18,976 nt of DNA from Candidatus Thorarchaeota archaeon (GCA_020348985.1 CP070761.1:2636012-2654987), one strand, 5' to 3'; counted from the first letter of the stretch, positions 1,638 through 18,839 are shown. Program-made: numbers and translations. Notes: generated from the letters alone by a model not told the origin.

Positions 1638-1642
1638 TTCGC

Positions 1643-1990: not shown

Positions 1991-2421
1991 GTCCACTTCC
2001 TCCTGAATGGTCCTGCTTTCCTCACCTTTTCTGTGAGTTCCTTGACACCATCAGCAAACCTCTGCCCCTCGGAGGCACTCGCCCATTGAAGCCTGACGCG
2101 GTCAGGACTTATCCCCGCACCTTCAATGGCGGTCTCAAGCAGAGCCCATCTGGCTCTCATCTTTAGGTTCCCGCTCGTATAGTGGCAGTCTCCTGGATGG
2201 CAACCCGACACCAGAACGCCATCGGCCCCTTGGTCAAGTGCGTCCAGCACGAAGTCGGGGTCAACTCTGCCTGTACAGTTCACCCGAATTATCCGCACAT
2301 TAGGTGGATATTGTATCCTACTTGTACCTGCAAGGTCGGCGCCGGCATACGAACACCAATTACAACAGAACGCAACAATAACTGGCTCCCAGTCCTTCAG
2401 TTCTACGGCCGCAGTAGTCAT
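1987..2421 (-). CDS. mvhD: Hydrogenase/Hdr [2Fe-2S] adaptor subunit MvhD (copy 2)
   Basis: FCCNWCSYAGADLAG, RVNCTGRVD, GADGVLVSGCHPGDCHY, WASASEG: canonical MvhD/FlpD motifs. Confidence 0.95.
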   Translation of the reverse strand: MTTAAVELKDWEPVIVAFCCNWCSYAGADLAGTSRIQYPPNVRIIRVNCTGRVDPDFVLDALDQGADGVLVSGCHPGDCHYTSGNLKMRARWALLETAIEGAGISPDRVRLQWASASEGQRFADGVKELTEKVRKAGPFRRKWT

Positions 2422-4169
2422 TTCTCACCACCTCCATGCACAAACGCGGAACTAAGAAGCGCCGCGATCATCGAAGAAATCTGGTCATCCGTGGAATGTC
2501 GCATCACAATCGCTCCACTTGGGCATCCGGCAGCGCACGTCCCACAGCCATGACATTTGGCCTCAGTCACCCGGGCTACTTCAACACCTTTCGTTGCCTC
2601 GATAGAAGTTGCTCCATACGGACAAGCAGTGACACATGTGTGACATGCCGAACAGAGTTCATCGATAACACTTGCTACGGTAGATTCTATCTCAACTTCA
2701 CCGCGAGCAATCAAAGACACTGCCTTGGCAGCTGCACCGCTAGCTTGAGTAGTACTATCGGTAGCACTCTTGGCCGATTGCGCAGCTCCAGCAATCATGA
2801 TCCCTGCTGTGTGAGTTGTGAGTGGTGCAAGCTTGATGTGTTCCTCATTGAAGAAACCATCTGCAGATCTAGTTAGGCTGAAGATCTTCGCAACTTCGTC
2901 AGCACCTTCGGGTGGCACCATAGCATTGGCCAACACCAGCATATCGGGCCTAAACTCGCAATTCTCTCCAGAAAGCACGTCATTCCATTTTAGCATAATT
3001 CCAGAATCATTAATCTTGACTGCAGGTTTCTTCTTCTTGTTGTACTTTGAGAAGATTACATGTTCTTGACGGGCACGACGATGAACATCCTCGTGCCCCT
3101 TGCCAAATGTTCGTATGTCATCATACAGCATAAGGACTTCATCGGCTTCTTCCCTCAATTCTGCAGCTACCTTTGCCATCGCGGTACAACAATATCGAGA
3201 ACAGTGTTCATGCCCTTTGACACCTTCCTCTCGTGAACCTACACAGCTGATGAACGCCACATTCTTTGGCGGCTGAGCTGTACTGGGGCGCAGAACAGTC
3301 CCGTCTCGCTTCATTTCTTCAAGTGCAGATAGTGTGATTATATCAGGAGAGTCTCCATACCCGTAGTAGCCAATTGGTTCAAACGGATCGAATCCAGTTG
3401 CCACTATCACAGTGCCAACTTTCATCTCGGACTCCTCCTCAGTCACATTGTTCTTGACTGTAACCTCGAAGTTGCCAATGTGCCCATCGAAATTTGTGAC
3501 TTCGGAGTTCAGAAGTATTGTAACATTCTCGCTTGCCTCAGCAGCCAACGACATCCTATCGACAACATCCTTTGCAGGTTCGTTGTTTGGATAAAGCGTC
3601 GAGAGCTTAGCTAGATTGCCACCAAGATTGCCTGTCCGCTCAACTAGTGTAGCTCTGAAACCTCTATCACCTATGTCAAGAGCGGCCCTTAATCCAGAGA
3701 CCCCGCCTCCTACGACAAGTGCATGAGGCTCAACACTGACAGTCTTGACTTCAAGAGGTTCAAGAAGTGATGCTCTTGCAACTGACATCCGCACTAGATC
3801 TCTAGCCTTCTGAGTAGCCGCTTCTGGTTCTTTCATATGACACCAAGAAACATGCTCTCTGAGATTCACCTGTTCGAAGCAGTATCTGTTGAGGCCAGCT
3901 TCTTCCACTACCTTTCGAAAGGTGGGCTCATGCATACGGGGTGAGCAGCTTGCGACCACCACCCTGTTTAGACCTAGCTCTTCAATCTTCTCACGAATCA
4001 AAGCCTGGCCGCTGTCACTACACATGAACATGAAGTGAGTCGATAGTTCAACGTTCGGGAACTCTGAAGCTAGCTCTGCAACATGCTCAACATTGACAGT
4101 ACCAGCTATGTTGTGGCCGCAGTGACAGACGAAGACACCAACTTTCGGACTTTCCCCAGATCCCATCAC
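2418..4169 (-). CDS. hdrA: HdrA-family flavoprotein with N-terminal FeS domain, FAD domain and C-terminal 2x[4Fe-4S]; lacks the inserted ferredoxin domain and DCxxC (QmoB-like layout)
   Basis: GVFVCHCGHNI...CS...SCSPRMHEPTF...NLREHVSWCH; GGGVSG; CVGSRE...HCSRYCC; C-terminal CSACHTCVTACP and CHGCGTCAAGCP. GTG start at 4169, or ATG at 4166. Confidence 0.9.
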   Translation of the reverse strand: MMGSGESPKVGVFVCHCGHNIAGTVNVEHVAELASEFPNVELSTHFMFMCSDSGQALIREKIEELGLNRVVVASCSPRMHEPTFRKVVEEAGLNRYCFEQVNLREHVSWCHMKEPEAATQKARDLVRMSVARASLLEPLEVKTVSVEPHALVVGGGVSGLRAALDIGDRGFRATLVERTGNLGGNLAKLSTLYPNNEPAKDVVDRMSLAAEASENVTILLNSEVTNFDGHIGNFEVTVKNNVTEEESEMKVGTVIVATGFDPFEPIGYYGYGDSPDIITLSALEEMKRDGTVLRPSTAQPPKNVAFISCVGSREEGVKGHEHCSRYCCTAMAKVAAELREEADEVLMLYDDIRTFGKGHEDVHRRARQEHVIFSKYNKKKKPAVKINDSGIMLKWNDVLSGENCEFRPDMLVLANAMVPPEGADEVAKIFSLTRSADGFFNEEHIKLAPLTTHTAGIMIAGAAQSAKSATDSTTQASGAAAKAVSLIARGEVEIESTVASVIDELCSACHTCVTACPYGATSIEATKGVEVARVTEAKCHGCGTCAAGCPSGAIVMRHSTDDQISSMIAALLSSAFVHGGGEK

Positions 4170-5506
4170 ACTTCACCTCCCTTCGCGAGAGTTATACTTG
4201 CTCGCATTGCCGCTGCACTCCCTGCAGCAACTGAATCTGGGATGTCCTTGGGTCCTTCGGCACATCCACACACAAACACGCCCGGCACTTTGGTGTCCAC
4301 TGGGTTGCTTGCAGGATGCTCTACGAACAAATAGCCATCAGAGTCGACATCCACGCCGAGCTCTGAAGCTATGACTCTCAGCTCTTTTGGAGGAAGGATA
4401 CCGGGGCAAAGCACCACAAGCTCGTGTTCATGCTGCAGATATTCCCCGGTCTCAGTGTTCTCAACACGGATCTCGATATTCCTAGTCTTTGGATTCTCTG
4501 CAACTTCTCCTACTCGACCTCGAATGAACTCGATTCCGAATCGAGTCTGGGCCATATTATAGAATTCCTCGAATCCCTTTCCGTATGCACGAATGTCCGC
4601 GTAGTAGACAGTGACGTTCTTTACGTTATCCGGTTGGAGCTCTTTGGCCATAACGGCATTCTTTATGCCATACATGCAGCATACTCGAGCACAGTATGGA
4701 ACTTGGTTGGTAACGTCTCGGGCACCCACGCATTGAACGAAGCCTATGCTCTTCGGAATCTTTCCGTCACTCATCCTCAACAGGTGCCCAGCTGTTGGTC
4801 CGGCTGCATTGATGAGCCTCTCATATTCGAGAGCGTTGATTACGTTCTTGTACTCACCATACCCTAGACGCGGATACTTACTGACGTCGAAGAGTTCGAA
4901 CCCGGTGGCTACAACGATTGCCCCTACAGGTATCTCAACTTCTTCGTCTTTCATGGCCAGGTCAATGGCCTCTCGCTCACAAGCCTTGACACACATCTCA
5001 CACTTGATACAGTTTTCATCGTCAATGGTATAGACGAGTGGTGTGTTCTGCGGGAATCCTACGTAGACAGCCCTTCTAAAGCCGAGACCTTGATCGAACT
5101 CGTTTGGAATTTCAATGGGACAGTGTTCCACGCAGTCGCCACAGCCCGAGCATTTGTCCTCTAGAACCTTGCGGGCTTTCCGAAGCACTTTCACCTTGAA
5201 GTTACCGGCTTGCCCACTGATCCCAGTAACCTCGGAGTAGGTAAGTAGCTCTATGTTTGGATGTCTGGCCACCTCCGATAGCTTTGGGGTGAGAATGCAT
5301 GCAGAACAGTCAAGGGTTGGAAAGGTTTTGTCGAGCATGGCCATTGCTCCACCAATTGAGGGTGTCTTCTCTACAAGTACAACATTGAATCCCTGATCTG
5401 CCAAGTCAAGCGAGGCTTGCATTCCGGAGACCCCTCCTCCGATTACAAGGGCGGTCTGAGTTGGACTCATCTGTGAAAGAGTAGCGAGTTTCTCTGCTTC
5501 AGTCAT
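4166..5506 (-). CDS. hdrA: Short HdrA-family flavoprotein with FAD domain, DCxxC and inserted 2x[4Fe-4S]; lacks N- and C-terminal FeS domains (QmoA-like layout)
   Basis: Starts directly at ALVIGGGVSG; LDKTFPTLDCSACIL; CSGCGDCVEHCP and CIKCEMCVKACE; CVGARD...YCARVCCMYGIKNA; GPKDIPDSVA; ends before the C-terminal ferredoxin domain. Confidence 0.9.
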   Translation of the reverse strand: MTEAEKLATLSQMSPTQTALVIGGGVSGMQASLDLADQGFNVVLVEKTPSIGGAMAMLDKTFPTLDCSACILTPKLSEVARHPNIELLTYSEVTGISGQAGNFKVKVLRKARKVLEDKCSGCGDCVEHCPIEIPNEFDQGLGFRRAVYVGFPQNTPLVYTIDDENCIKCEMCVKACEREAIDLAMKDEEVEIPVGAIVVATGFELFDVSKYPRLGYGEYKNVINALEYERLINAAGPTAGHLLRMSDGKIPKSIGFVQCVGARDVTNQVPYCARVCCMYGIKNAVMAKELQPDNVKNVTVYYADIRAYGKGFEEFYNMAQTRFGIEFIRGRVGEVAENPKTRNIEIRVENTETGEYLQHEHELVVLCPGILPPKELRVIASELGVDVDSDGYLFVEHPASNPVDTKVPGVFVCGCAEGPKDIPDSVAAGSAAAMRASITLAKGGEV

Positions 5507-5931
5507 TTCTTGCCCCTCCCACTGATAGGACTTGGTCCGAGCTTTTTGATCTGCTCAGTCATCTCTGTGATGGCTTCTGCCCATTGCTGGCCCTCAGATG
5601 CGCTCGCCCATAGCAGCCGCAGCCTTTGTGGGTCCATTCCAATGCTCTCAAGTGCTGTCTGAAGTGCTTGAAAGCGAACCTGAGTCCGGTAGTTGCCAGT
5701 CGAATAATGACAATCTCCAATATGGCACCCGCTGACAATGACGCCGTCAGCACCATTCTTGAAAGCCTCTAGCACCATGACCGGATCAACACGACCTGAG
5801 CACATGAGGCGAATCACCTTCGCACTCGTCGGGTACTGAATACGCGATATCCCTGCGAGGTCAGCCCCACCGTATGAGCACCAGTTGCATGTGAACGCAA
5901 CAATATTCGGGTCGAAGATCTTCTTACTCAT
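5503..5931 (-). CDS. mvhD: MvhD (copy 1), 142 aa
   Basis: MSKKIFDPNIVAFTCNWCSYGGADLAG...MCSGRVD...GCHIGDCHY. Start moved from 6057 to ATG 5931, which overlaps the upstream stop as ATGA and has GGAGG upstream; the extra 42 codons overlap the hdrA-L gene. Confidence 0.93.
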   Translation of the reverse strand: MSKKIFDPNIVAFTCNWCSYGGADLAGISRIQYPTSAKVIRLMCSGRVDPVMVLEAFKNGADGVIVSGCHIGDCHYSTGNYRTQVRFQALQTALESIGMDPQRLRLLWASASEGQQWAEAITEMTEQIKKLGPSPISGRGKK

Positions 5932-8900
5932 GTCTCGACGCCTCCTTTGACCTTGGCCGCTGCTTCTATTACGGGCATTATCTGCTCCCGCTTGTAGTGG
6001 TGTATATCTATGGCATTCATTGGACATCCACCTGCACACGTTCCACATCCCTGGCACAATTCAGAGAGAACCTTCCTTTCGTCCCTTTCACCAACAACTG
6101 CATTGTATGGGCAGATTTCTCCACAGAGATCGCAGTCCATGCAAAGCTCAGTGTCAATTTCGGCAAACATGGGCTCAATTTGGAATTGCCCTGGCGTAAG
6201 CAGTGATTGTGCTCCGGCCGCAGCGGCCTTGCCATATGCCACGGCCTTCGGAATGTCCATTGGTCCGAGACACGCACCAGCCAGAAAGACTCCGTCTTGG
6301 AAGGCATCGACCGGACGAAGCTTCGGATGTGCTTCTAGAAGATAGCCGTACTCTCCGGTTGATAGTTTGAACTTCCTTGCGAAGTCCTTCATGTCATCAT
6401 GCGGAAGAATAGCAGTGGCCAACACAACCAGTTCATGGGTTGTCTCGAGCCGTTCTCCGGTGTAGAGGTCTTCGGCTAATACTTTCAGTGACTTCGAGCC
6501 AGGTATCTCTTCAACTTCTGATGGCCTTCCCTTGACTATAATGACACCCATTTCTCGTGCCCGATGGTAGAGGCTCTCGTATCCGAGACCGTGTGTACGA
6601 ATGTCCATGGCGTAGATTGTGACTTCGGTTTCAGGATACTTCTCCTTGATTTGAGTTGCCTGTTTGAGTGAATTCTCACAGCCGATATAGCAGCAATAAT
6701 CTGCGTCGACTCTCCGATCTCTTGATCCGACACACTGAATGAAGGCCACACTCTTTGGAATCTCATGGTCAGAAGGTCTCTTGATCTTGCCCTTTGTAGG
6801 ACCTGCAGCGTTCGTGAACCTTTCAAACTGCGCACTCGTGACTACGTTATCGAAGGTTCCAAAACCGTATTCCCGCGTTTCGATTGGATCATATATTTTG
6901 AATCCAGTTGTTACAACAATTGCACCCACTTGAATCTCCGAGATCTTGTCTCCTAATGAGTGGTCAATGGCATTTGGCTCACACACCGTCAGGCACTGCA
7001 AGCACTCAGAGCACACTCCGCAGCTCAGACATCTTCCTGCCTCCTCAACGGCAGCCTTCTCGCTCAGACCCAGCTCGACTTCAGCAAATGAACGCAATCT
7101 CTTGCTCTTTCCAAGCGTCGGCATTGCTGGACGCATGTTCTGGCCGAGTCTAGCGATGTCAACATCGACATATGGAATTGGACTCAAAGTATCATCACGG
7201 GCCTTCAGAAGATCAATTCCCTGAAGATGTCTTGCTATCGAGTCTGCAGCAGTTTTTCCATGTGCAACGGCTTCAATGACTGTGCCACCTCCGCCCAAGA
7301 CAACAGCGCCGCCTGCAAACACTCCCGGCTTGCTTGATTGCATTGTCCTGGAATCTACTGAAAGAGTACCCCATTCAGTATGTTCAAGTTCCCATAACGG
7401 ACCTGTTGGCTTGACCTCTTGTCCTATAGCTATGATTATGTTGTCCAACTTGATGGTGAACTCGGAGTCAGGAACAGGTACTGGTCGTCGACGCCCTGAA
7501 GAGTCAATGTCTCCTAATCGCATCTGGATGCATTTGATGCCCTTGACTATCCCCTGCTCTTCTTTCACCGAAATCGGTTGCGTAAGGAAGAGTATCTTAA
7601 CACCTTCACGTTCAGCTTCATCAATTTCATGGGCTAGCGCTGGCATCTCTTGTCTTGATCGTCTATAGACGATACTGACCTGCTTGGCACCTAGTCTAAG
7701 AGCTGTCCTTGCTGCATCAATCGCGGCATTCCCGCCGCCTATGATTGCGACTTTATCGCCAATTGTGACATTCTTTCCACTATTGACCCGATCCAAGAAG
7801 TCAAGCGCGTGAAACACTCCGGAAGCATCTTCGCCTTCTATTCTGAGTCGTATGCTAAAAGGAGCTCCTGTTCCTATGAACACAGCCTTGTAGCCCATTT
7901 CTTTTAGCTCATCAAGAGACTCGATCCTTTTACCCATCTTGAATTCTACACCAAGATTCTCAACTCGCTTGATCTCCAAGTCAATGATGTCGCGAGGCAA
8001 TCGGAATTCAGGTATGCCATACCTTAGGAGACCACCAGCCGCCTCCTTGGCTTCAAATATCGTAACTGGGTAGCCCGACCTGATGAGGTCATGTGCGCAT
8101 GCTATCCCTGCTGGGCCAGCTCCAATTATGGCCACTTTATCCTCCTTATCAAGAGGGAGTATGGCAACAGGTTCGGCTCCCTGTTCAATCTCTTTGTCCG
8201 CCAGGAATCTGTGTAAATTCCTAATGCTGACTGGAGCATCATACTTGCCTCGTTCACACTTGTCTTCACATGGACTAGTGCATACTCTGCCAAGTACACC
8301 TGGAAATGGAGATACGTCACGATAGAGATTGAGGGCTTCAGTGAACTTCCCGTCATGTAGTAACTGGACGAAGCCTTGGATATTCACGTGAGCTGGACAC
8401 GTGATTCTGCATGTAGCGTGCCCTTTCTTCTCTATCGTATACTTGTTGGGCACCGCCTGTGGGAAAGGTCTATAGATCGCAGTCCTGTTTGCCAGACCAA
8501 ACTCATATTCACTTGGAACTTCAACTGGGCAAGCGTCCTCACATTCGCCACACCCAGTACATTTCATTGTGTCAATATAACGTGATTTCTGTCTGATTTT
8601 GAGGCGGAAGTTGCCTACGTAGCCATCTACATTGTCAACTTCACTGTAGGTCATGAGATTGATACGCGGATGCTGTCCAACCTGGGACATAATTGGGCCA
8701 AGAATACAGATTGCGCAGTCACTCTGTGGGAACACCTTGTCCAAGAGAGCCATCTGTCCTCCAATGGTCGGTCTACGCTCAATAAGATACGTGTTGAAGC
8801 CAGCATTAGCCAGATCAAGTGATGCGCTGATACCTGCAACACCGCCACCTATGACTGCCACTTTTGGAATGATGTTGACTCGCTGCCTGACAAGTGGTTC

Positions 8901-9299
8901 AAGCTGTTTCACGCGCTGCACAGACATCGCAATGAGCGCCATTGCCTTTCGTGTCGCCTTCTCAGGCTCATTCATGTGGCACCAGCTGACATGCTCACGA
9001 AGATTGACTTGATCATACAAGTACCGATTGAGTCCTGCTTCTTCAACACACTTTCTGAAGACTGGTTCGTGAGTGCGAGGTGTGCAACTCGCTACAACCA
9101 CACCGTCTAGCGAATGATCGGTTATTGCTCTCTGTATTGCAACCTGACCGTCATCGGAGCATGCGAACAGCAAGTCCGTCGAATATGCCACGCCGGGCAG
9201 ATAACCAGCGTAATTCGCTACTGCAGGACAGTCTACCGTGCCAGCGATGTTGAGACCGCAGTGACAAACGAAAACTCCAATTCTACCTAGTTCAGCCAT
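5928..9299 (-). CDS. hdrA: Large HdrA with an inserted GltD/NfnB(SudA)-like NAD(P)H:flavin oxidoreductase module (HdrL-like), 1123 aa
   Basis: HdrA N-domain (VCHCG, CS, SCTP, HVSWCH), GGGVAG, DCAICIL, CTGCGECEDACP; then GltD-like CRITCPAH...GRVCTSPCEDKCER, GAGPAG, GGGNAAIDAA, YRRSR, EAGRCLSCG; then the HdrA second half (CVGSRD, EAHPKLRPVD) and a C-terminal ferredoxin domain. Confidence 0.92.
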   Translation of the reverse strand: MAELGRIGVFVCHCGLNIAGTVDCPAVANYAGYLPGVAYSTDLLFACSDDGQVAIQRAITDHSLDGVVVASCTPRTHEPVFRKCVEEAGLNRYLYDQVNLREHVSWCHMNEPEKATRKAMALIAMSVQRVKQLEPLVRQRVNIIPKVAVIGGGVAGISASLDLANAGFNTYLIERRPTIGGQMALLDKVFPQSDCAICILGPIMSQVGQHPRINLMTYSEVDNVDGYVGNFRLKIRQKSRYIDTMKCTGCGECEDACPVEVPSEYEFGLANRTAIYRPFPQAVPNKYTIEKKGHATCRITCPAHVNIQGFVQLLHDGKFTEALNLYRDVSPFPGVLGRVCTSPCEDKCERGKYDAPVSIRNLHRFLADKEIEQGAEPVAILPLDKEDKVAIIGAGPAGIACAHDLIRSGYPVTIFEAKEAAGGLLRYGIPEFRLPRDIIDLEIKRVENLGVEFKMGKRIESLDELKEMGYKAVFIGTGAPFSIRLRIEGEDASGVFHALDFLDRVNSGKNVTIGDKVAIIGGGNAAIDAARTALRLGAKQVSIVYRRSRQEMPALAHEIDEAEREGVKILFLTQPISVKEEQGIVKGIKCIQMRLGDIDSSGRRRPVPVPDSEFTIKLDNIIIAIGQEVKPTGPLWELEHTEWGTLSVDSRTMQSSKPGVFAGGAVVLGGGGTVIEAVAHGKTAADSIARHLQGIDLLKARDDTLSPIPYVDVDIARLGQNMRPAMPTLGKSKRLRSFAEVELGLSEKAAVEEAGRCLSCGVCSECLQCLTVCEPNAIDHSLGDKISEIQVGAIVVTTGFKIYDPIETREYGFGTFDNVVTSAQFERFTNAAGPTKGKIKRPSDHEIPKSVAFIQCVGSRDRRVDADYCCYIGCENSLKQATQIKEKYPETEVTIYAMDIRTHGLGYESLYHRAREMGVIIVKGRPSEVEEIPGSKSLKVLAEDLYTGERLETTHELVVLATAILPHDDMKDFARKFKLSTGEYGYLLEAHPKLRPVDAFQDGVFLAGACLGPMDIPKAVAYGKAAAAGAQSLLTPGQFQIEPMFAEIDTELCMDCDLCGEICPYNAVVGERDERKVLSELCQGCGTCAGGCPMNAIDIHHYKREQIMPVIEAAAKVKGGVET

Positions 9300-10198
9300 T
9301 ACGCGACACCTCCTAGCTTCTTCAGCTTCTCAACGAATTTGTCGGTCTTTACTGTGTGATGCGTCAGACCGATTTCTTCCGGTGAGTATCCAAACGCCAA
9401 AGCAAGGATCTGTGGATAATGCAGCACGGGTATCTCAAGCTCATCCATTCCGAATTTCCGTTTGATAATCCTCTGTCCCATGTCATGCTGTAGATGGCAG
9501 AGTGAACAGACGGTGACCAACCCATCGAGGTCTGCATTGTCTGCATCGACGAGTCGTTCATGCAGAACCATATCGGCCAGATCATCCTGAATTCCACGAA
9601 GTAAGCCTCCGCAACACCTGTGTTTTCCGGTGTACATCTTGCTCGTGACACCAAAAGTTTCTAGAATCGTGTCAGCGAACGTGGGCCGCTCGGAATACTC
9701 TATGTTCAGCATCTCATGTGGTTTAAGCATATGACAACCATAACGCAAGCCAACCTCAATGCCGGTCAAGTCGACAGTCGAGTGTTGCTTGAGCTTCTCA
9801 ACTCCCACGTCGTTGTATAGGAAGTCTACGAGGTGACGACCCTCGATGCTTCTATCATAACTCAATCCTGCTGCCCCAAGAATATCGTCAACTCTGGAGT
9901 GCAATTCAGGATACTTCTCCAAGGCATAGTTCACACGCTTGTAGGAGTGGAAGCACCCACTACACGGAGTCAACAAGTCTAGCCCCATCTCTTCAGCCTT
10001 GGCCATGTTGCGTGCAGCCATAGCAATGCTTGTTGTCAGATCCAATGACTGCATCCAGAACGGTGCACAACAAGTCTCGTTCGGCACGTCAACAACCTCA
10101 ATATCCAAGTGTTCCAACACCTTTCTCGTTGCCGCCTCGTATCCAATCAGGGACCTTCTTGTCGGCATAAGACATCCCCAGGCAATTGCCATCTTCAT
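9299..10198 (-). CDS. hdrB: Heterodisulfide reductase subunit B (copy 2)
   Basis: Two CCG domains with all ten Cys: WGC, TCCAP, PCSGC; YGCH, RCCGG, VCSLC; C-terminal [13 protein letters not shown]. Confidence 0.93.
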
Positions 10199-10767
10199 TC
10201 CTCAGACTCCCTCCCTTCATTTGCCTCTATGATTTCCAAGAAGCCCGAACTCTGTATTATCTTGTGAAGTTGTTCCATATCGGGCTCGGAAAAAGGTGGC
10301 AATCCAAGCTCTTCTCTTATTTTGCCAACGTGACCAGTAGCTTTGCTCACTCTTCCGTGCTCCATCACAGTCTTTGCCATCTTGACGTATCCAGGTGCCG
10401 CATGGCCTTCCTCACTAGCCATATTCCTAAGAACGGTGACAACGTCGGTGAAGTTGACTTCCTGAACGCATCTCTCTTCACAGGTAAAACATGCTGCGCA
10501 AAGCCAGAGGTTTTCGCCAACGAGGACTTGTTCTCTAAGACCCAGAAGCACATTGCCCAAGACCCTGCGGGGTCTGTAGTCAATCACTGACCCAACCGGA
10601 CATCCACCACTGCAAGCCCCACACTTTAAACACCTGAGGAGTCCTTCGCCTCCGAATTTGTCGGCAACCTCATACTTGAAGGCGCTATCCACATCGGCGT
10701 CCCGAACGGGAACGTCACTTCTGTAAGGTTTGGGTTTACGCACGCTATCTGAGTTGCTTCCTTCCAT
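10195..10767 (-). CDS. hdrC: Heterodisulfide reductase subunit C (copy 2)
   Basis: [14 protein letters not shown] and [14 protein letters not shown]; directly precedes hdrB. Confidence 0.92.
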
Positions 10768-10773
10768 GTCGTA

Positions 10774-11655
10774 TCACCTACCCTCCTTCAGCGCAGCGAG
10801 AATAGGATTGGCGCTGATGCGGTTTAGATGGAATCCCATCAAGTTTTCATCCAGTCCAAGAGCAGGTCCTAGGAACTGTGTCAACGGCATAACGGGAATA
10901 CGATCGTTTCCATTGGCGCCCTCTCCAAACTGAACCTGTGTAAGCTGGATGTCGCAGAAGGCGCAAGCCGTAACGATTCCAATGGCACCTGCAGACCGAA
11001 CATTTGCAATCTTCTCCGCGCCAATCTTGCTTGAAGCTGTCTCGTCCATGGCCAGAAGCGGACCGCCACAACATCGAGTCCTCCCAGGGTATCTCACTGG
11101 CACGCCACCTACAACTTCGATGACCTTGTCAATGATAGATGGATTCTCGGGGTCATCCACTCGTGCGAGTTCGTGTGGCCTAGTCACGTGACATCCGTAG
11201 TGTGCCGCAAGTCGAACACCTTCGTAGGGTCTCGTGACTGCTCTTTCAATGGCTTTGTATCCAATGTCTTCGCGAAGAACCTGAAGCAGATGCTTAACTT
11301 GCGTCTTGCCCGTGTATTTCAACCCCTCCTCTTTGAGTATAGAGTTGAGTTCATCACGAGCCGCCTCGTCAGTGTCCAGGGCATGTTTGGTGTGTTTCAA
11401 TGATCCAGAACAAGCCCCACAAATCGCGAGTATGTCCTTGCCCTCTTTTTCAGCGAGAGCAAGAATCCTGCCGCCCAAAGCATGAAACGCGTTATCATTG
11501 AGTGATTCGACATACTGTGCACCACAGCAGGTGGTCTCCAACATATCAATCGCTGTCACACCAAGGCGTTCAAGCACGAGCTTCGTTGTCGCCTCGTAAG
11601 CTGGAAGCCTCACTGGAGTTGTGCATCCTCTGTACAGCAAAATCTCAACCATCAT
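10774..11655 (-). CDS. hdrB: Heterodisulfide reductase subunit B (copy 1)
   Basis: YRGC, TCCGA, ICGAC; HYGCH, RCCGG, ACAFC: two complete CCG domains. Confidence 0.93.
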   Translation of the reverse strand: MMVEILLYRGCTTPVRLPAYEATTKLVLERLGVTAIDMLETTCCGAQYVESLNDNAFHALGGRILALAEKEGKDILAICGACSGSLKHTKHALDTDEAARDELNSILKEEGLKYTGKTQVKHLLQVLREDIGYKAIERAVTRPYEGVRLAAHYGCHVTRPHELARVDDPENPSIIDKVIEVVGGVPVRYPGRTRCCGGPLLAMDETASSKIGAEKIANVRSAGAIGIVTACAFCDIQLTQVQFGEGANGNDRIPVMPLTQFLGPALGLDENLMGFHLNRISANPILAALKEGR

Positions 11656-12146
11656 AATATACCTCCAAGATACCGTTTCCTTACTCGTTCTGTGAATTCG
11701 CTATTCCAATGCAGGTCTGTATCGAGACCCAAATCCTCTCTATCATCTTCGATGAAGTCTGAGTAGGAGTCCTTCAGAATCCAACCATCGTCAAGGACAA
11801 GCCGAGCAGTGGAACGAAAGATTTCAGGGACATGTCCTTCTTGAACTGCTAGATGTCGAACTGCCTGGAATATGTCTGCCGGGCTGACATCTTCTTGACA
11901 CCTATCTTCACACATTCGACATGTCATGCAGAACCAAGGTATGTCGCTCTTCAGCACCTCTTCCCTCTTCCCGATTAGTATCTTCTGAATCAATTTTCGT
12001 GGGCGGTAGATGTCCGACACTGATGAAACCGGACAAGTAGCGGTGCAAATACCGCATTGTATGCAACGAGAAAGAAGTTCGCCACCTGGGAGGTCGGATA
12101 GCTCAAGTGCAAAAGCAGAACTCGGTGAGTGCGGCTCACTAGTCAT
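11652..12146 (-). CDS. hdrC: Heterodisulfide reductase subunit C (copy 1), 164 aa; first gene of the operon
   Basis: CIQCGICTATCPV and WFCMTCRMCEDRC. Start moved from 12263 to ATG 12146 (MTSEPH...), which has AGGAGATGG upstream. Confidence 0.9.
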   Translation of the reverse strand: MTSEPHSPSSAFALELSDLPGGELLSRCIQCGICTATCPVSSVSDIYRPRKLIQKILIGKREEVLKSDIPWFCMTCRMCEDRCQEDVSPADIFQAVRHLAVQEGHVPEIFRSTARLVLDDGWILKDSYSDFIEDDREDLGLDTDLHWNSEFTERVRKRYLGGIL

Positions 12147-12770
12147 GGGCGCGATCCATCTCCTGTTCAACCAAAGCTGTCGTTGAAATATCACCCTGAG
12201 GTGAGGTCGCTTTCCGTTCGATGAATTCATGTTTGGTTCAAACGTTAAACTTACAGAAAACACGTCATTTGGAGAAATAATAACTATATCGAGTTAGGCT
12301 CCGGACAAACTGCTAGGATGTGCGTCGAAAACCAGTCAAATTAGAAGGCAATCTTGAATGAAAACAGACATTGAAGGCGTTCTTCTGCAACGGCACATTT
12401 TGCGTGTTGTTCCATTTCACAGTATTGAGACTCTCTTGCAGATTTCGAGTTTGAAATAAATCTCTGCAGATACGATAGTAATCGTTCATCCTGAGATATG
12501 CCTTCCAGCACAACCTGCGGTCGAATTGTACATATCGCAAATCTTCGTTTGAGCTGTCGTTATCATGATCGAAAACAAAAGCTCTTTCGGATTCCGTGGT
12601 CGTTCTCAGACAATCAACCATAGACCCAATCATTCAGGTAGCTGTCTCGAAATCCGCCAAGACTCAGCTATCGCACATTCAGAAGGCAAGACTAAAATGA
12701 AGGTCAAGGCCGCAAACGGTCGGCTAAAGACAGAGAGTTGTTGTGGAGTCTCCAGGCGCGGTGATTGGGT
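12147..12770. promoter_or_regulatory. Divergent intergenic control region (hdr/mvh operon versus aor)
   Basis: About 620 nt between head-to-head genes, with AT-richer patches near 12240-12290 and 12450-12460 and several short inverted repeats. Exact TATA/BRE elements cannot be assigned. Confidence 0.5.
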
Positions 12771-14957
12771 ATGGTTCTAATGGAGATGAAGTATGACATC
12801 CCTGAAATCAGACATGGTTATGCAAATCAAACACTCTACGTAGATCTGAGCAAGAAGACAATCGAAGTCAAGCCCGTCGATGAGAAGATGAAGGAGACCT
12901 TCACAGGCGGCAAAGGATTCGACCTTTGGCTCATGTGGAATGGACTCCCAAAGGACCGAGTCGTGAAGTGGGATGATCCGGAGAATGAGATCTGCATAGC
13001 AACAGGACCACTTGGTGGAGTGACAACTTACCCAGGCGCAGGGAAATCAATTGTCACAGCAATTTCACCGCTGACTGGTCAGCCTATCGACAGCAACGTC
13101 GGAGGTTACTTCGGACCACACCTGAAATTCTCCGGCTTCGATGCCATGGAAATTCAAGGGTGTTCAGCCGAGGAGGTCTACATCTTCATTGATGGGGATG
13201 AAGGCCTGGTTCAGATACTGAACGCAGGAGACCTGCCTGATAATGCATATGACATAACTCGGATCTTGACAGATAGACACACTGCAAAGGGTGGCAGGGA
13301 CATCTCCGTGGTTTCCGCAGGTCCGGGCGCCGACCACGCATGGATGGGCTGCCTGAACTTCTCCTGGTGGGACAACAAGCGAGAGGAGCCTCGTTACAAG
13401 CAGGCTGGCCGTGGAGGTACAGGCACTGTACTGAGGAACAAGAGAGTCAAGGCACTCGTGGCGAAGAAAGAGAGACTAACACTCGAGATGAACGGCCCAG
13501 CAGATCTTGACATGCTAAAGGCAGTCGCCAGAGAGCATTCAAAGGAAATCCTTGAACTTGACTCGCAACAGAACCGGATGCGTGTGGTTGGAACGGCTCA
13601 TCTGCCTGGCATTATGGATGAATTCGACCTGCTGCCAACAAGGAATTTCAGAGCAGGTAGTGATCCTGAGGCGAAGAATCTGCATGCCGAAGTATGGGAA
13701 GAGACCTACACAAACAGCGGCAAGGGCTGGGATGGATGTTGGAGACCTTGTGCCATCAATTGCTCACACTGCATTGAAGGTTTTGTGCCCAAGACAGGTC
13801 CGTTCGCCGGTAAGAAGGTGATTGTTGACGGACCAGAGTATGAGACAATTGCCGGATGCGGGTCGAATCTCGGCATCTTCGTTCCGCATTGGGTTGCCGA
13901 GTTGAACTTTTATTGCGATGCGTATGGGATAGACACTATCAGCTTCGGAACGACTATGGGCTTTGTGATGGAGCTGTTTTCTGAGGGGTACATTGACGAG
14001 AAGGCCACAGGAGGGCACAATCTCGAATGGGGTGCGGCGAAGGCTGCGTTGGCCGTTTTGCATGAGATAGCCAGTGGGGAAGGCTTTGGCGGCGAGCACT
14101 TCGGGAAGGGTGTGCAGTATTTGAAAGGCTACTTCGCGTCATCTGGTGCTGACGTACGGGTCATGGAAGACATCGGAATGGTTCACAAAGGTCTGGAGTA
14201 TAGCCTGTATGTGACGAAGGAGTCTCTGGCTCAGCAGGGCGGATACGGTCTCACACTCAAGGGACCACAGCATGACGAGGCCTGGCTGATCTTTCTTGAC
14301 ATGGTTCACAACTACATGCCAACCTTTGATGACAAGGCCGAGGCATTGCATTACTTCCCAATGTGGCGGACTTGGTTTGGTTTGAATGGGCTGTGCAAAC
14401 TACCTTGGAACGACGTCGTACCCCCAGATAACAGTGAGACCGACGAGCCAGCAAAGGTCCCCAGACATGTCGCCTTTTATGCTCGCTTGTTCAGTGCGAT
14501 GACTGGCCGCCAAGTTGACGGTGATGACCTTGTCCATATGAGCGAGAAGGTCTACAACTTTCAAAGGATCTTCAACATACGCCAGGGGAAGGGTCTCAGA
14601 GTCAATGATTCAAATCCACCTTACCGGAGTATTGGTCCAGTCACTGCCTGGGAATACGAGAGCAGACAAGAGAGGTACGACTCGCAGCTTCAAGAGAAAT
14701 GTGGGATTGACTGTTCCAACATGACATCAGAAGAGAAACTCGCGAAACTTAAGGAATATAGAATGGAACAATACATGTGTCTCACTGACGCGGTTTACAA
14801 GCGACGTGGGTGGACCCGTAATGGAGTGCCCACGATGGAGAAGGTGAACTCCCTGGGCCTGGATTGGATTCCAGACCTTGTGACTATTGTGAAAGAGCAC
14901 CAGGCAGATGAGCCTCCGTCACACACACTTCCAGAGAGCGATGAAGGCTGGAAATAG
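12771..14957 (+). CDS. aor: Tungstopterin aldehyde:ferredoxin oxidoreductase (AOR/WOR family), about 728 aa
   Basis: GYANQTLYVDLS, SPLTG..IDSNVGGYFG..LKFSGFDA, AGRGGTG, DGPEYETIAG.GSNLG, CDAYGIDTISFG; FeS Cys in CWRPCAINC and GLCKLPW; RRGWTRNGVPT. ATG 12771 lies 6 nt after GGTGA. Confidence 0.92.
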   Translation: MVLMEMKYDIPEIRHGYANQTLYVDLSKKTIEVKPVDEKMKETFTGGKGFDLWLMWNGLPKDRVVKWDDPENEICIATGPLGGVTTYPGAGKSIVTAISPLTGQPIDSNVGGYFGPHLKFSGFDAMEIQGCSAEEVYIFIDGDEGLVQILNAGDLPDNAYDITRILTDRHTAKGGRDISVVSAGPGADHAWMGCLNFSWWDNKREEPRYKQAGRGGTGTVLRNKRVKALVAKKERLTLEMNGPADLDMLKAVAREHSKEILELDSQQNRMRVVGTAHLPGIMDEFDLLPTRNFRAGSDPEAKNLHAEVWEETYTNSGKGWDGCWRPCAINCSHCIEGFVPKTGPFAGKKVIVDGPEYETIAGCGSNLGIFVPHWVAELNFYCDAYGIDTISFGTTMGFVMELFSEGYIDEKATGGHNLEWGAAKAALAVLHEIASGEGFGGEHFGKGVQYLKGYFASSGADVRVMEDIGMVHKGLEYSLYVTKESLAQQGGYGLTLKGPQHDEAWLIFLDMVHNYMPTFDDKAEALHYFPMWRTWFGLNGLCKLPWNDVVPPDNSETDEPAKVPRHVAFYARLFSAMTGRQVDGDDLVHMSEKVYNFQRIFNIRQGKGLRVNDSNPPYRSIGPVTAWEYESRQERYDSQLQEKCGIDCSNMTSEEKLAKLKEYRMEQYMCLTDAVYKRRGWTRNGVPTMEKVNSLGLDWIPDLVTIVKEHQADEPPSHTLPESDEGWK

Positions 14958-15054
14958 ATTCTCACGGTTTCTCTGGTAAACCATATATCCTCAAAATCCA
15001 AGATGTAGCTTGAACCAGAAGACTGGTTGTCCGGATTGGGGAGAAGCTCATACT

Positions 15055-17652
15055 ATGCGCATGAATTCAAAGGGCATAACGTTTGCAGTAGTTCTGACGG
15101 TGCTTCTGATAGGTCTCGTAGGCCTTGTGGGAGATACATCCGATTCGTCTGATAATGCCCCACCAATTCATCAGACCGATTCGCTTTCTCAAAACTCGCT
15201 CTCCTACAATGAGATGGCCATACGTAGTGATGCAGAGTTCCATCAGATAGCTTCTCAGGAAGGATGGCCAGGTAGTGGCACGATGAATGATCCTTATCGG
15301 ATTCTCTTAGGCTGGTTTGGTGGAACAGATGCACCAGCCTTGATTCTTGAGAATGTCCATGAAACCTACTTTGAGTTTGAGGCTTGTGTCTTCCACTCCT
15401 ACGGAGAGCAGGAGATCGTAGCTCGTTTCACAAATGTGACCAGTGGCGTCTTCTATGATTGCCTTTTTGCAGGTTCTGACGTCTACGGTAATGTGACGAT
15501 AGAGGGTTCATTGCTTATGGAGTTTCTAGAGACCGATTTCTTCTCTAATCTGGATATTGTCAACTGTTCTGAGTTCTTTGTTACAATGGGCAATGTTACT
15601 TATTCAGATGTACGATTGCTGGAGGGCACTCGAAACATAACAATCGTGGACTTCCACTTTGTTGACAGCCATCTCATTATCATCGATTCCTATGAGAATA
15701 GGATCAATGAGAACATCTTCACAAGTTACGTTTATGATGCAGGGTGGGACAATGACTGGAACGGGAACTACTGGATAGACTACTCCGGCATGGGAGCCTA
15801 CACCATTCCTGGCCCAGCCGAAAGCGTCGACAACTACCCGTCATTGTACACAGGCGGGCTCCCCGTACCGTCAGGTTATACTTTCAGCGGATCAACTGCC
15901 ATAAGAAATGATGCCCAGTTCTCTGAGGTTGCATCAGTCAGAGGTTGGGAAGGTAATGGAACTGAGAGCGATCCTTACCTCATCCAGAATGTATGGTTTC
16001 AAGGTTCAGGTGAATACTCCTTAATCCTAGAGAACCTAGACACAACTCACTTCGTCTTCGAAAGATGTGGATTCTCGAGTGAGTTCTCTACGGAACTAGT
16101 GAATATCAGCAACGTAGAATACGGATTCTTCGTTGAATGCTTGTTCACGGGTGACTCAGGTGGATGTCACATTTGGCATTCTGAGTTTCTGGCCTTTGAT
16201 TTGTGCTACTTTGGCACTCACTGCTTTGTGAGAAACTCGTCAGAGATATGGTTCTATGGTGGCAATTTCACGGCAGGCTCATTGGTGATAGAAGTAGATT
16301 GCTACTGGATAGCTGTTCACGAAGTTCTCTTCTACTCGGGAGACCTCTATATTGGTCAAGATTGCCACGATTGTGAAATCTCAGGAAACAAGTTCAGGTT
16401 CGACGCCATAGATGACGGCTATGACAACCAGTGGGACGGCAATTACTGGCCCGATTTCAGTGGGACGGGTATCTACTACGTCAGTGGGAGCGCAGGCAGT
16501 GTGGACAGTGACCCACACGTGCTGACCGAGTTCATTGAGCCGCCAGATGGTCCACCACCAGTGTGGCCATTTCAAGCGGCGGCTGGAGCTATAGCTGCTT
16601 TGTCATTCACAATTGTACTATCCATAGGTGTAAGACGCATTTCAAGAAATTCACCACGTCGTTATGATAGAACCAGGAGAGAACCAATACGAGTCGAGAG
16701 AACCGGACCTGTTGACAGAGAAGTGGAGAGAGACGACCGGGTTGTGAGAGCAGATGAGATTCGCAAAACTGCGCGTCCAGAGCTCTCAGTGGCATATCCA
16801 AGGACTCCGCGACCTGTGTTTCCAACACCAGTACCTGAGTCCGAATCAAAGGGCGCAGTGAAAGCGTTACGCGGCGGAGAGTTTCTGGGAAATCGAATGA
16901 GGTTCAAGGTCAAGGTGCTCAATGAAACCCGATTTACAATAACAGACGTGACTGTATTCCTGTTGTCATATCCTCAGAGTGCCCTGGTCTTGCGTTCAGA
17001 CAATGACGTTTTCTTCCCCAAGATTGAGCCAAACGGTTTCAGGAGCCCATACTTCGATTTCGGCCCAACTCAAGACTGCGTTCGCGGTGAGATTATCGCA
17101 GGAGTATCATATGTAGACCATCTTGGCAATCCACACTCGATGACAGCGAAACCATATGTCATCCGAGCTGTGTGTGATCTTCTACAGCCCGAACCAATAT
17201 CCGCAGCGTCATTTGAATTGAAGCTCAAGGAGCTTCATCATGGAGATCTCAACCTTCGAATCGATGACTGGAATCCAGAAGAGATGCACGAGAAGACGCT
17301 GAGAATCCTTGATGAATCTAATTTCTACGAGGTAAGCAGCACTATTGAGGAAGATGACGGAATTCTCTTCACAAAGATAATAGGATGGGCACGTGGCAAG
17401 TATACTGGCAGGAGCATTGGTGTGGAGATCTCGGTCTCAGGCAAATCAGGAGTGAAAGGTGCTTCATGCCGGATTCTTGTCCTTGGTGAAGACGAGGCAA
17501 TGATACTGCCAACGGTCGACGAGCTCAAAGAGAAGCTCAGTACATGGCTTTGCCCAATGTGCGGAAGTAAATTGCCATTGAAGGCTGTTGAAGACCTCCG
17601 TAAAGGAAGAGCCGCTGAGTGCGAGTTCTGTAAAGTTGCGATAGGAAGATAG
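15055..17652 (+). CDS. Type I single-pass membrane protein: signal peptide, two beta-helix (NosD-like) ectodomain repeats, TM helix, Pro/Arg linker, appendage-like domain, C4 zinc ribbon
   Basis: ATG 15055 follows GGGGAG. Hydrophobic N-terminus (ITFAVVLTVLLIGLVGLVG); two ~207-aa repeats with many N-x-S/T sequons; TM AAAGAIAALSFTIVLSIGV followed by RR (positive-inside); C-terminal CPMC-x19-CEFC. Confidence 0.85.
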   Translation: MRMNSKGITFAVVLTVLLIGLVGLVGDTSDSSDNAPPIHQTDSLSQNSLSYNEMAIRSDAEFHQIASQEGWPGSGTMNDPYRILLGWFGGTDAPALILENVHETYFEFEACVFHSYGEQEIVARFTNVTSGVFYDCLFAGSDVYGNVTIEGSLLMEFLETDFFSNLDIVNCSEFFVTMGNVTYSDVRLLEGTRNITIVDFHFVDSHLIIIDSYENRINENIFTSYVYDAGWDNDWNGNYWIDYSGMGAYTIPGPAESVDNYPSLYTGGLPVPSGYTFSGSTAIRNDAQFSEVASVRGWEGNGTESDPYLIQNVWFQGSGEYSLILENLDTTHFVFERCGFSSEFSTELVNISNVEYGFFVECLFTGDSGGCHIWHSEFLAFDLCYFGTHCFVRNSSEIWFYGGNFTAGSLVIEVDCYWIAVHEVLFYSGDLYIGQDCHDCEISGNKFRFDAIDDGYDNQWDGNYWPDFSGTGIYYVSGSAGSVDSDPHVLTEFIEPPDGPPPVWPFQAAAGAIAALSFTIVLSIGVRRISRNSPRRYDRTRREPIRVERTGPVDREVERDDRVVRADEIRKTARPELSVAYPRTPRPVFPTPVPESESKGAVKALRGGEFLGNRMRFKVKVLNETRFTITDVTVFLLSYPQSALVLRSDNDVFFPKIEPNGFRSPYFDFGPTQDCVRGEIIAGVSYVDHLGNPHSMTAKPYVIRAVCDLLQPEPISAASFELKLKELHHGDLNLRIDDWNPEEMHEKTLRILDESNFYEVSSTIEEDDGILFTKIIGWARGKYTGRSIGVEISVSGKSGVKGASCRILVLGEDEAMILPTVDELKEKLSTWLCPMCGSKLPLKAVEDLRKGRAAECEFCKVAIGR
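15217..16515 (+). repeat. Intragenic tandem duplication of the ectodomain (about 15217-15840 and 15898-16515)
   Basis: AIRSDAEF..ASQEGWPGSGTMNDPY.I / AIRNDAQF..ASVRGWEGNGTESDPY.I; LILEN in both; DNDWNGNYWIDYSGMG.Y..PG.AESVD.YP / DNQWDGNYWPDFSGTG.Y..SG.AGSVD.DP. Confidence 0.9.
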
Positions 17653-17756
17653 AACGCCAATGAGTAGTCAGGATTTCTACAAGTGTGCTTGTACCATACC
17701 AAGAACGAACTGTGTTTCTTGGAACTCCAACTGCCCTAGGGGGTCGGAGTAGCACA

Positions 17757-18839
17757 ATGCAAGTGGATGCAACTTTCTTCTTCGTGATGTTGGTTGTGTC
17801 TCTGGTCTGTTACTGCGCGTGCTATGGGAAGCTTGGTTGCCGTTGTGCAGAAGATGACTTTGACGCGCAAGGGGATAGAACATACCGAACGCGAGTGAGA
17901 CATACTCGGACTGCACCCTGGCTGCGAATTCCCACTTATGAACCGGTTGCCAAATCGAAAGCTGTATCTGCTCGTAGACCAATCTCGGGAGTCTCAGAGG
18001 CCCTAAGGACGGTTCCAAGAGGTGCGCCCGAGCGTCCACAAGATGTTAGGGCTCTTAGAGGAGGCGAGTTCATCGGGAATAGGATGCGATTCAAGGTCAA
18101 GGTATTCAACGACAGTCCGTACATCATTACCGATGTCAGGGTGTATCTGATTTCTTACCCGCGAGAGGCTCTGAGTTTGGTCGGAGAAGACGATGTCTAT
18201 TTCGGAAAGATAGAACCCGATGGATTCAGAAGCCCACACTTCGACTTCATGCCAACACAAGACTGCGTTAAAGGAAACATCGTAGCAGGCGTGGCTTATA
18301 TCGATCATCGTGGAGCGGCTCACACTTTGCAGACAAGACCCTTTGTGATTCGGTCAGTCTGCGATCTACTGCAACCAGAACAGATTGCCCCGAGTGAGTT
18401 CGAACTAAAGCTCCAGAATCTGGCCCATGGCGAACTAGTCGTCAAAGTAGATGAGTGGACTCCAGAAGAGATGCATGAGAAGACACTAAGGATTCTTGAT
18501 GAATCTAACTTCCATGAAGTAACATCAGAACTGGACGCCTCTGAGAGTGTTGTAATGGGAAAGGTAAGTGGCTGGGCAAGGGGCAAGTACACTGGCAAGA
18601 ATCTTGGCGTCGAAGTGTGGATCTCCGGAAAGTCTTCAGAACCCGGCGCGACATGCAGGATCAAGGTCTCCGGTGAAGATGATGCCATGATTCTGCCTGC
18701 AATTGATGACCTGAAGGAACGTCTGAGTGCCTGGCTATGTCCAATGTGCGGAGGAAAACTGAGCATGGCGGCCGTGGCCGAGATTCAATCGGGAAAATCT
18801 GTAACGTGTCCTTATTGCAGTGTGTCGGTTGCTAGATAG
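17757..18839 (+). CDS. Paralogous membrane-anchored protein: N-terminal hydrophobic anchor with Cys cluster, basic linker, same appendage-like domain and C4 zinc ribbon (360 aa)
   Basis: ATG 17757 follows GGAG. FFFVMLVVSLVCYCACYGKLGCRC anchor; last 264 aa colinear with those of 15055-17652; CPMC-x19-CPYC. Confidence 0.85.
   Translation: MQVDATFFFVMLVVSLVCYCACYGKLGCRCAEDDFDAQGDRTYRTRVRHTRTAPWLRIPTYEPVAKSKAVSARRPISGVSEALRTVPRGAPERPQDVRALRGGEFIGNRMRFKVKVFNDSPYIITDVRVYLISYPREALSLVGEDDVYFGKIEPDGFRSPHFDFMPTQDCVKGNIVAGVAYIDHRGAAHTLQTRPFVIRSVCDLLQPEQIAPSEFELKLQNLAHGELVVKVDEWTPEEMHEKTLRILDESNFHEVTSELDASESVVMGKVSGWARGKYTGKNLGVEVWISGKSSEPGATCRIKVSGEDDAMILPAIDDLKERLSAWLCPMCGGKLSMAAVAEIQSGKSVTCPYCSVSVAR

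Follow-up and report, generated by a model that had tools for sequence, protein, structure and literature searches.

In eukaryotes, the ears (appendages) of AP2 are docking hubs for peptide motifs, and ears in general serve as recruitment hubs of vesicle coats. Relatives of these domains have been described in archaea, where loci of ESCRT (endosomal sorting complexes that are required for transport) carry adaptin appendage proteins made of an immunoglobulin-like (Ig) and a TBP-like lobe, one of them bearing a zinc ribbon and one joined through a transmembrane (TM) linker to a GOLD domain (Makarova 2024, 10.1101/2024.02.06.579148). In Methanosalsum zhilinae, WP_013898571.1 is the zinc-ribbon form and WP_013898578.1 the GOLD-TM-appendage form. 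The same work described Asgard proteins in which the appendage is combined with Vps28-C and longin, traced the domain to the last archaeal common ancestor and proposed that archaeal appendages supply ESCRT systems with interfaces for cargo or partners. Asgard archaea are also reported to have Alpha_adaptinC2 and B2-adapt-app_C as standalone domains (Eme 2023, PMC10307638); Supplementary Table 3 of that study lists Lokiarchaeales Alpha_adaptinC2 proteins of ~330 aa that end in a CxxC...CxxC ribbon, and a solenoid plus ear arrangement was reported as not found by Pfam. A full-text literature search returned no further paper on archaeal appendage domains. Here we analysed a window of 18,976 nucleotides from Candidatus Thorarchaeota archaeon (GCA_020348985.1 CP070761.1:2636012-2654987), in which the first gene of a tandem pair encodes a membrane protein ending in an ear of this kind.

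Our best explanation, which we consider probable, is that this protein is a type-I glycoprotein whose cytoplasmic part is an appendage-homologous docking ear with a zinc ribbon. An earlier reading of the same DNA from its sequence alone (the sequence-only reading) had taken the architecture to be uncharacterised, a statement now outdated, as the two studies above already describe archaeal ears, including membrane-tethered and zinc-ribbon forms. The general idea of archaeal ears is published and the present gene adds detail to it. What is new is a Thorarchaeota-centred subfamily that is invisible to Pfam and has beta-COP as its nearest structure, together with bare-anchor tandem arrays, a predicted beta-solenoid ectodomain and no ESCRT linkage. 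The archaeal appendage proteins of Makarova 2024, compared by their description, share with ours both lobes (IG and TBP), the optional presence of a zinc ribbon and a TM link to an outside domain, but they belong to ESCRT loci and the TM-linked one has a GOLD ectodomain, whereas here the loci are non-ESCRT, the subfamily forms tandem arrays and the ectodomain of this member is a predicted beta-solenoid. The Asgard proteins of Eme 2023 have the same order of sandwich, platform and CxxC...CxxC, and one Helarchaeales entry shares the GGxxRFKVxVxN sandwich start. To the eye, the Lokiarchaeales proteins shown there lack an obvious TM segment, and they match the Pfam model, which the Thorarchaeota subfamily does not; Thorarchaeota motifs (RFKVKV, ARGKYT, CDLLQP and others) do not occur in the searched part of the supplement.

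Fold and relatives of the ear

The ear was modelled with AlphaFold2 (AF2) from an alignment of 94 relatives (A1), which also served for the family profile and the Pfam scan. The model has a mean pLDDT of 92.3 and no segment below 50, with 9-10 strands in residues 3-113, then helix-strand-helix-four strands-helix in 118-230 and a small C-terminal element, so that an Ig-like sandwich followed by an alpha/beta platform is a sound description of the predicted fold. In a Foldseek search of the PDB, the top 16 matches were all appendages of AP2 alpha/beta2, beta-COP or gamma-COP (E 3e-11 to 8e-7, AP2 alpha at 3e-11), and beta-COP chain 9qpq_H aligned with a TM-score of 0.68/0.73 and a root-mean-square deviation (rmsd) of 3.4 Å over 241 columns. 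VIA-align on the Foldseek list placed beta-COP first, with Z 17.4 (223 of 243 residues, 3.1 Å; beta-COP 724-953), although 9qpq_H is a cryo-EM model, perhaps prediction-assisted, and its lead over the crystal structures may be inflated; the AP2 alpha ear (1w80, 1b9k, 3hs8) scored Z 15.1-15.5 over 209 aa and beta2 (1e42, 2iv9, 3h1z) and gamma-COP 13.6 each. An independent aligner run over 48,161 representative chains gave Z 15.1 for the alpha ear (209 aa), 13.7 for beta2, 12.9 for gamma-COP, 13.2 for the AP4 beta platform alone (113 aa) and 12.2 for BBS9 (190 residues). Matches to the sandwich only (TRAP-beta, transglutaminase, complement MG domains) reached Z 13.2 at most and covered residues 1-108. 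In the ESM Atlas, the resident model of the first-gene protein matched eukaryotic beta-COP clusters (TM-score 0.64-0.67, ~220 residues), and our AF2 model matched beta-adaptin, alpha-ear and AP3 beta clusters (0.55-0.63), with adaptin ear clusters reaching 0.62-0.63. As modelled, beta-COP is the closest shape to the ear.

These results bear out the sequence-only reading, which had divided the domain into a beta-rich half and an alpha/beta half and likened it to a coat appendage. It had named a different fold, or matches to generic Ig domains with no platform, as what would speak against the idea; what was obtained was a sandwich plus platform with appendages as the best whole-domain matches. 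The sandwich lobe aligns with those of 9qpq_H, 1w80, 1e42 and 1r4x, and the platform packs on it in the canonical orientation in whole-domain superpositions. With the beta-COP appendage (9qpq_H, 5a1u_G, 5nzr_B; Coatamer_beta_C + Coatomer_b_Cpla) the ear further shares a flexible hinge, a DxxxP...F linker and an LxxxN(F/M) helix end, but the two are 14% identical, and the first-gene ear has no Pfam match, carries an extra Cys4 zinc ribbon, sits on a TM helix rather than on an alpha-solenoid trunk and, as far as known, is not part of a heterotetramer. No Adaptin_N trunk of the kind found in appendage-bearing heterotetramers precedes it; the hinge leads to the TM helix and the ectodomain instead. 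From the AP2 ears, which have the same two-lobe fold, it differs in attachment and in its C-terminal extension.

By sequence, the ear is a large family of its own. A single-sequence HMMER search of 1.84 billion cluster representatives returned 386 clusters (50% identity) at E<=1e-3, 132 of them at E<=1e-30, with the match nearly always C-terminal in proteins of 264-2867 aa. With eight copies in the genome and a 54%-identical copy next door as well, the domain is far more than a chance resemblance. The close relatives all come from metagenome-assembled genomes of Thorarchaeota or Promethearchaeota, which marks the host as an Asgard archaeon, and are named 'hypothetical protein' at NCBI. Near-invariant residues of the ear are C108, L110, L111, P113, N157, F158, A180, G182 and K183 (alignment A1), and all four cysteines of the ribbon are invariant among 67 relatives (alignment A2). 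In a one-by-one Pfam scan many zinc-ribbon models were matched, Zn_ribbon_9 by 23 of the 94 relatives (best E 2e-5). GAE_BBS1 was weakly matched by 12 of them (best E 2.5e-3), with TRAPPC13_C and TRAP_beta also weak.

The link to eukaryotic ears is thinner at this level, and here lie the points that count against homology. Neither the whole proteins nor the domain had a relevant match in Pfam and NCBIfam scans, which returned just chance matches at the level of zinc fingers. The curated appendage models Coatamer_beta_C, Coatomer_b_Cpla, Alpha_adaptinC2, Alpha_adaptin_C, B2-adapt-app_C and COP-gamma_platf (checked as PF07718, PF14806, PF02883, PF02296, PF09066 and PF08752) match the first-gene protein (P0001) nowhere at E<=1, and appendage families are absent among the 25 Pfam families most often matched by the 94 relatives. 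The domain belongs with the appendages by structure, not by a curated Pfam match. A phmmer search of PDB sequences with the single domain found nothing below E 0.45. Among all PDB sequences, the top match of the A1 profile is beta-COP, over the platform (beta-COP 826-905), at E 0.11-0.22, which by itself is not significant, and this single sequence link has E 0.11 at best. Identity to eukaryotic ears is 12-15%, for which reason convergence of two common folds is formally conceivable.

Both protein and region of this sub-significant profile match are nevertheless those of the best structural match. HMMER pairs beta-COP IMDYIQPATCTDAEFRQMW (IMDYIQP...AEFRQMW) with the VCDLLxP...F block of the family, LQHILKSTNM with LxxxNF and LYARSIFG with AxGKYT; the platform-half motifs that the sequence-only reading had named are genuine beta-COP segments aligned to equivalent family positions, though at these E-values. 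For the sandwich half and the last helix, the comparison with beta-COP is the structural alignment (724-953). A generic Ig-like domain beside a helix-grip or TBP-like domain, resembling appendages by convergence, would account for the missing Pfam match and the low identity, and each lobe indeed has a widespread fold that gives numerous unrelated matches at Z 9-13. We regard such a look-alike as very unlikely, since only appendages and BBS9 match both lobes jointly in equal orientation (Z 12-17.4, 190-223 residues), the best sequence-profile match in the PDB is the equivalent segment of beta-COP with its shared linker motif, and related Lokiarchaeales ear plus zinc-ribbon proteins (Eme 2023, PMC10307638) reach Pfam Alpha_adaptinC2. 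The GAE-platform of the BBSome (BBS9/BBS1, 6vbu_9) also aligns over both lobes, in keeping with the GAE_BBS1 matches among the relatives, but its structural score is below those of the COPI and AP ears, and P0001 has no propeller. Taken together, the ear is very probably homologous to eukaryotic coat appendages, strongly so by structure and weakly by sequence.

Architecture and membrane topology

The first gene is an open reading frame (ORF) of 880 codons, open throughout, at 15010-17652 on the + strand with a TTG start at 15010; the public gene call starts at M16 and gives 865 aa (P0004). Its parts, and the neighbouring paralogue, are listed in Table 1. A sediment-metagenome contig of 1447 nt covers 15923-17369 without joints, so ectodomain, TM helix, hinge and ear lie on one molecule; no contig from a second metagenome study spanned the TM helix itself, and a search for sequencing runs with the gene listed no RNA run. 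The sequence-only reading had placed the ear at 16858-17550, which corresponds to aa 617-847, and the family hidden Markov model sets the conserved domain at 617-875, zinc ribbon included. Its order of ectodomain, TM helix, hinge and ear holds, while it missed the zinc ribbon as a part of the module and laid no emphasis on the ectodomain being optional.

Table 1. Positions in the window of the parts of the first gene and of its tandem paralogue
Feature	Position	Strand	Extent	Basis
Whole gene, putative type-I membrane protein with cytoplasmic ear	15055..17652	+		ORF list, translation, called product P0004
Putative N-terminal signal peptide/signal anchor	15073..15129	+	aa 22-40 of 880-aa ORF	Kyte-Doolittle 2.68
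Ectodomain repeat 1, predicted beta-solenoid (right-handed beta-helix-like)	15187..15864	+	aa ~60-285	38% identity to repeat 2
Ectodomain repeat 2, predicted beta-solenoid	15895..16539	+	aa ~296-510	AF2 model mca530c55c43f
Transmembrane helix	16576..16632	+	aa 523-541	Kyte-Doolittle 2.11
Cytoplasmic hinge, Arg/Pro/Glu-rich, probably disordered	16633..16851	+	aa 542-614 (73 aa)	Composition: 18 R, 10 P
Ear, Ig-like beta-sandwich	16852..17175	+	model residues 1-108	AF2 model m476f663aaaee, structural alignments
Ear, inter-subdomain linker (VCDLLQP) and TBP-like alpha/beta platform	17176..17544	+	model residues 109-231	Structural and HMM alignment
C-terminal Cys4 zinc ribbon (CPMC ... CEFC)	17545..17649	+		Cys conservation, Zn_ribbon_9 matches
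Tandem paralogue (P0003; called P0172, 360 aa)	17757..18839	+		TM anchor, 71-aa hinge, ear, zinc ribbon

MRMNSK precedes the putative N-terminal signal anchor, and an acidic stretch of Ser and Asp comes after it. The TM helix is preceded by PPDGPPPVWP, with RRISRNSPRRYDRTR directly after and RRISRNSPRR as the basic flank; because these basic residues directly follow the helix, the flanks fit the positive-inside rule. Nine NxS/T sequons lie before the helix, in the two ectodomain repeats, and one after it. Among the TM-anchored copies in this genome the flank after the helix is clearly basic in five of six (weaker in P0003), and two of them have their TM helix behind Thr/Pro stalks. Across 38 relatives with long N-terminal parts, which are not independent, so that p-values overstate the effect, the median number of Lys plus Arg per 15 aa is 5 after the helix against 0 before it, and sequon density per 100 aa is 1.91 outside against 0.65 inside. 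The soluble paralogues lack signal peptides and carry cytosolic-type zinc fingers and winged helices like those of PCI proteins or the UFM1 ligase.

The basic flank, the outside bias of the sequons and the Cys4 zinc ribbon all place the ear in the cytoplasm, beyond the helix and a disordered-looking hinge, as the sequence-only reading had it; by such sequence rules this location is well supported, though not proven. The resemblance of the sandwich lobe to extracellular Ig-like domains is what could be said for an ear outside the cell, reached by an inverted topology or by a 'TM' segment that does not span the membrane. Such an arrangement is barely credible given the positive-inside rule, the sequon asymmetry, the Thr/Pro stalks before the helix in paralogues, the invariant Cys4 ribbon and soluble paralogues with no signal peptide.

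On the other side of the membrane, the two ectodomain repeats are 38% identical (E 5e-39). The AF2 model of repeat 2 (pLDDT 87, pTM 0.87) has a helix cap and then ~18 short strands; its Foldseek matches are weak (E 3e-3 to 0.1) and every one of them is a beta-solenoid or beta-helix, and Pfam Beta_helix matches repeat 2 below the cut-off (E 0.0057). The end of repeat 1 matches the NosD/Beta_helix region of a 794-aa paralogue (BLASTP, E 3e-9). No close orthologue of the ectodomain occurs among the fetched relatives, where long matches to other beta-helix ectodomains are 23-28% identical and short terminal segments ~49%. An origin of the first gene by fusion of a NosD-like neighbour gene, as present in other Thorarchaeota loci, with a member of an array is unproven, because the ectodomain has no close orthologue.

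Paralogues, arrays and gene context

The second ORF (17685-18839, +, 384 aa) begins 104 nt after the first gene in its called form, which starts at M25 (360 aa), and over its last 328 residues it shares 54% identity with the first-gene protein (E 1e-123). Its TM helix is at aa 29-47 of the 384-aa ORF, and its ear and zinc ribbon are at 18039-18836. Only ~4 residues lie outside the membrane in this adjacent paralogue, which makes the ectodomain optional. A cluster of cysteines stands at the cytoplasmic end of its anchor, at 17775-17846 (aa 31-54, CYCACYGKLGCRC); short-form relatives have a median of two cysteines in this juxtamembrane window, for which lipidation, metal binding and disulfides are possibilities.

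The genome, a single contig of 3.16 Mb, has eight ears, at 0.67, 0.73, 0.88, 2.21, 2.44, 2.65 (two) and 3.15 Mb. Six are TM-tethered, behind N-terminal parts that range from none to ~1230 aa, one of them with a NosD domain, and two are soluble, in a 760-aa protein of zinc-finger repeats and a 314-aa protein. In one paralogue of 916 aa (3154472-3157222, -; L042:8473-11223) a poly-Thr stalk precedes the TM helix and PPPY, a PPxY-type motif, follows it directly (SRRRPKGPPPYVPV). In the wider family 91 of the 141 representatives with enough upstream sequence have a hydrophobic segment no more than 120 aa upstream of the ear, some representatives have the ear behind 3-11 predicted TM helices, and 100 of 152 end in CxxC...CxxC. 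Among 301 Asgard genomes, a sample in which many are incomplete, 150 have the ear domain (E<=1e-5), including 71 of 76 in its own family and 63 of 68 in a second family, with none in several others. The cytoplasmic module of ear and zinc ribbon is portable and occurs behind many ectodomains.

Other arrangements were also seen. A subfamily with no ribbon (P0089, P0101, P0106, P0107, P0111, P0115 and ~20 more) has a C-terminal extension of 130-155 aa after the ear, and nine representatives (P0014, P0017, P0024 and others) have two ears in tandem. In P0121 (607 aa) a beta-propeller precedes the ear, with weak Beta-prop_BBS7 and BBS2_Mid matches and a BBS2/7/9-like order. P0045 and P0053 (~700 aa) combine the ear with E3_UFM1_ligase/PCI-like winged helices, P0064 with a leucine-rich repeat (LRR) region and P0084 with TSP3 repeats. 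A Thorarchaeota cluster of 407-aa proteins in the ESM Atlas, 80% of them with Pfam HEAT_2, matches the ear model with a TM-score of 0.80-0.84 over 235 residues (rmsd 2.2); these proteins, separate from the first gene, have an alpha-solenoid and an ear in one chain, in the order of adaptin large subunits.

A receptor-like layout, in which varied ectodomains share a conserved cytoplasmic module, would also suit signalling: the beta-solenoid would sense a surface or a ligand, and ear and ribbon would act as an output that binds a regulator or nucleic acid, with no role in sorting or remodelling. Binding to nucleic acids or to partner proteins is common among zinc ribbons, and relatives bear the JGI annotations 'RPC12/RpoP' or 'RNA-binding Zn-ribbon'; no trafficking gene lies in the neighbourhood either. 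But many members have essentially no ectodomain, as in 57 short forms with a median of 13 residues before the TM helix, and sensing is for that reason not the common function, and protein docking is the only role known for the ear fold (Makarova 2024, 10.1101/2024.02.06.579148). We therefore find a signalling receptor unlikely.

The closest relatives, in 32 Thorarchaeota loci, are short genes (~350-430 aa) with the order TM-hinge-ear-ribbon, set in co-oriented arrays of two to four (L010-L023 and others, e.g. L011:601-7880, L012:2-6798 and L015:5620-11167). Paralogue lineages are common to several genomes, and a quick tree puts both ears of the window, on long, unresolved branches, in the array clade. 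The hinge of the 57 short forms, with a median of 73 aa, is rich in R, S, P, E and K and has a conserved motif, RPIPGV, ~20 residues before the ear (RRPISGV in P0003, ~17980-18010), which could be a partner-binding or self-binding site. Conserved arrays whose lineages recur across Thorarchaeota genomes are what would be seen if the paralogue ears homo- or hetero-oligomerised under the membrane as a skeleton that clusters or anchors surface proteins, and eukaryotic coat complexes each have two different ears. Direct evidence for a skeleton was not found, and diversified binding specificity explains the arrays equally well. Eukaryotic ears are monomeric docking modules and not lattice formers, and this role seems quite improbable to us. 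When the ears of P0001 and P0003 were co-folded, the ipSAE values were 0.01 and 0.00, which, obtained without controls, speak neither for nor against binding.

Upstream of the pair, the window is occupied by an Hdr/Mvh-type cluster (1-12263, -) with three different HdrA-like genes (one product of 1123 aa with a GltD-like insert), HdrB/C-like genes and Oxidored_q6 hydrogenase genes, and then by a gene for a tungsten-type aldehyde:ferredoxin oxidoreductase (AFOR) at 12765-14957 on the same strand as the first gene. Both represent ordinary anaerobic energy metabolism and are unrelated to the ear. AFOR, an EamA transporter gene, a PRC-barrel gene and a helicase recur as neighbours of ear loci; in the 32 Thorarchaeota loci the EamA gene precedes the array in 25, and the PRC-barrel gene follows it on the other strand in 17. 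Such recurrence has the look of synteny within the lineage and not of a functional operon.

Possible role of the tethered ear

We propose that the first-gene protein would expose its two predicted beta-solenoid modules outside the cell and, below its single TM helix, hold by a flexible Arg/Pro-rich hinge of ~73 residues a two-lobed ear homologous to the large-subunit appendages of COPI and AP complexes, with the Cys4 zinc ribbon capping the C-terminus. By analogy with eukaryotic ears, ear and ribbon would serve proteins of the cytosol as a docking site, probably by way of short linear motifs. Set off from the membrane by the length of the hinge, such an ear may couple surface proteins or membrane patches to a machinery for sorting or remodelling. 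The fold, the domain order, the family size and the distribution of the ear are established by the results above, while partner recruitment and any role in trafficking are suggested by the eukaryotic analogy.

Gene context speaks against this proposal at the level of function, as no ESCRT or coat-like gene adjoins any of the eight copies of the ear in the genome. Matches to Snf7 lie at 1.865 and 2.972 Mb, those to Vps4_C at 2.971 and 2.265 Mb, and more than 180 kb separate the nearest ear copy from the ESCRT genes, which are at 1.865 and 2.971-2.972 Mb. In place of the ESCRT neighbourhood of the previously described archaeal appendage proteins, the window has the Hdr/Mvh cluster and AFOR. A Pfam VPS28 search of the genome gave no match, but neither did control genomes, and this result is uninformative. 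Since no ear gene is near the ESCRT genes at these positions, an ESCRT link of the ears is possible but unsupported by gene context.

A further reading goes beyond docking and takes the membrane-tethered ears as archaeal precursors of coat appendages, combining cargo receptor and adaptor and recruiting a proto-coat or remodelling machinery, for which HEAT plus ear or propeller plus ear proteins, ESCRT and small GTPases would be candidates. We hold this to be distinctly unlikely. If it were true, every surface protein, or every bare anchor of the tandem arrays, would itself bring that machinery to the membrane by its beta-COP-like ear, and the appendage would have been a membrane-proximal docking module before its fusion to a solenoid trunk in the eukaryotic stem.

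Examination of this gene pair adds to the described archaeal ears a Thorarchaeota subfamily with tandem arrays, a beta-COP-like shape and independence from ESCRT loci. It also gives a name to many 'hypothetical proteins' that Pfam does not see (386 clusters), present in nearly all searched genomes of two Asgard families. The ear is small and confidently modelled and could be expressed to identify its partners. Asgard ears, mostly on the inner face of the membrane and in about eight copies per genome, may offer a handle on the proto-trafficking that existed before eukaryotes.

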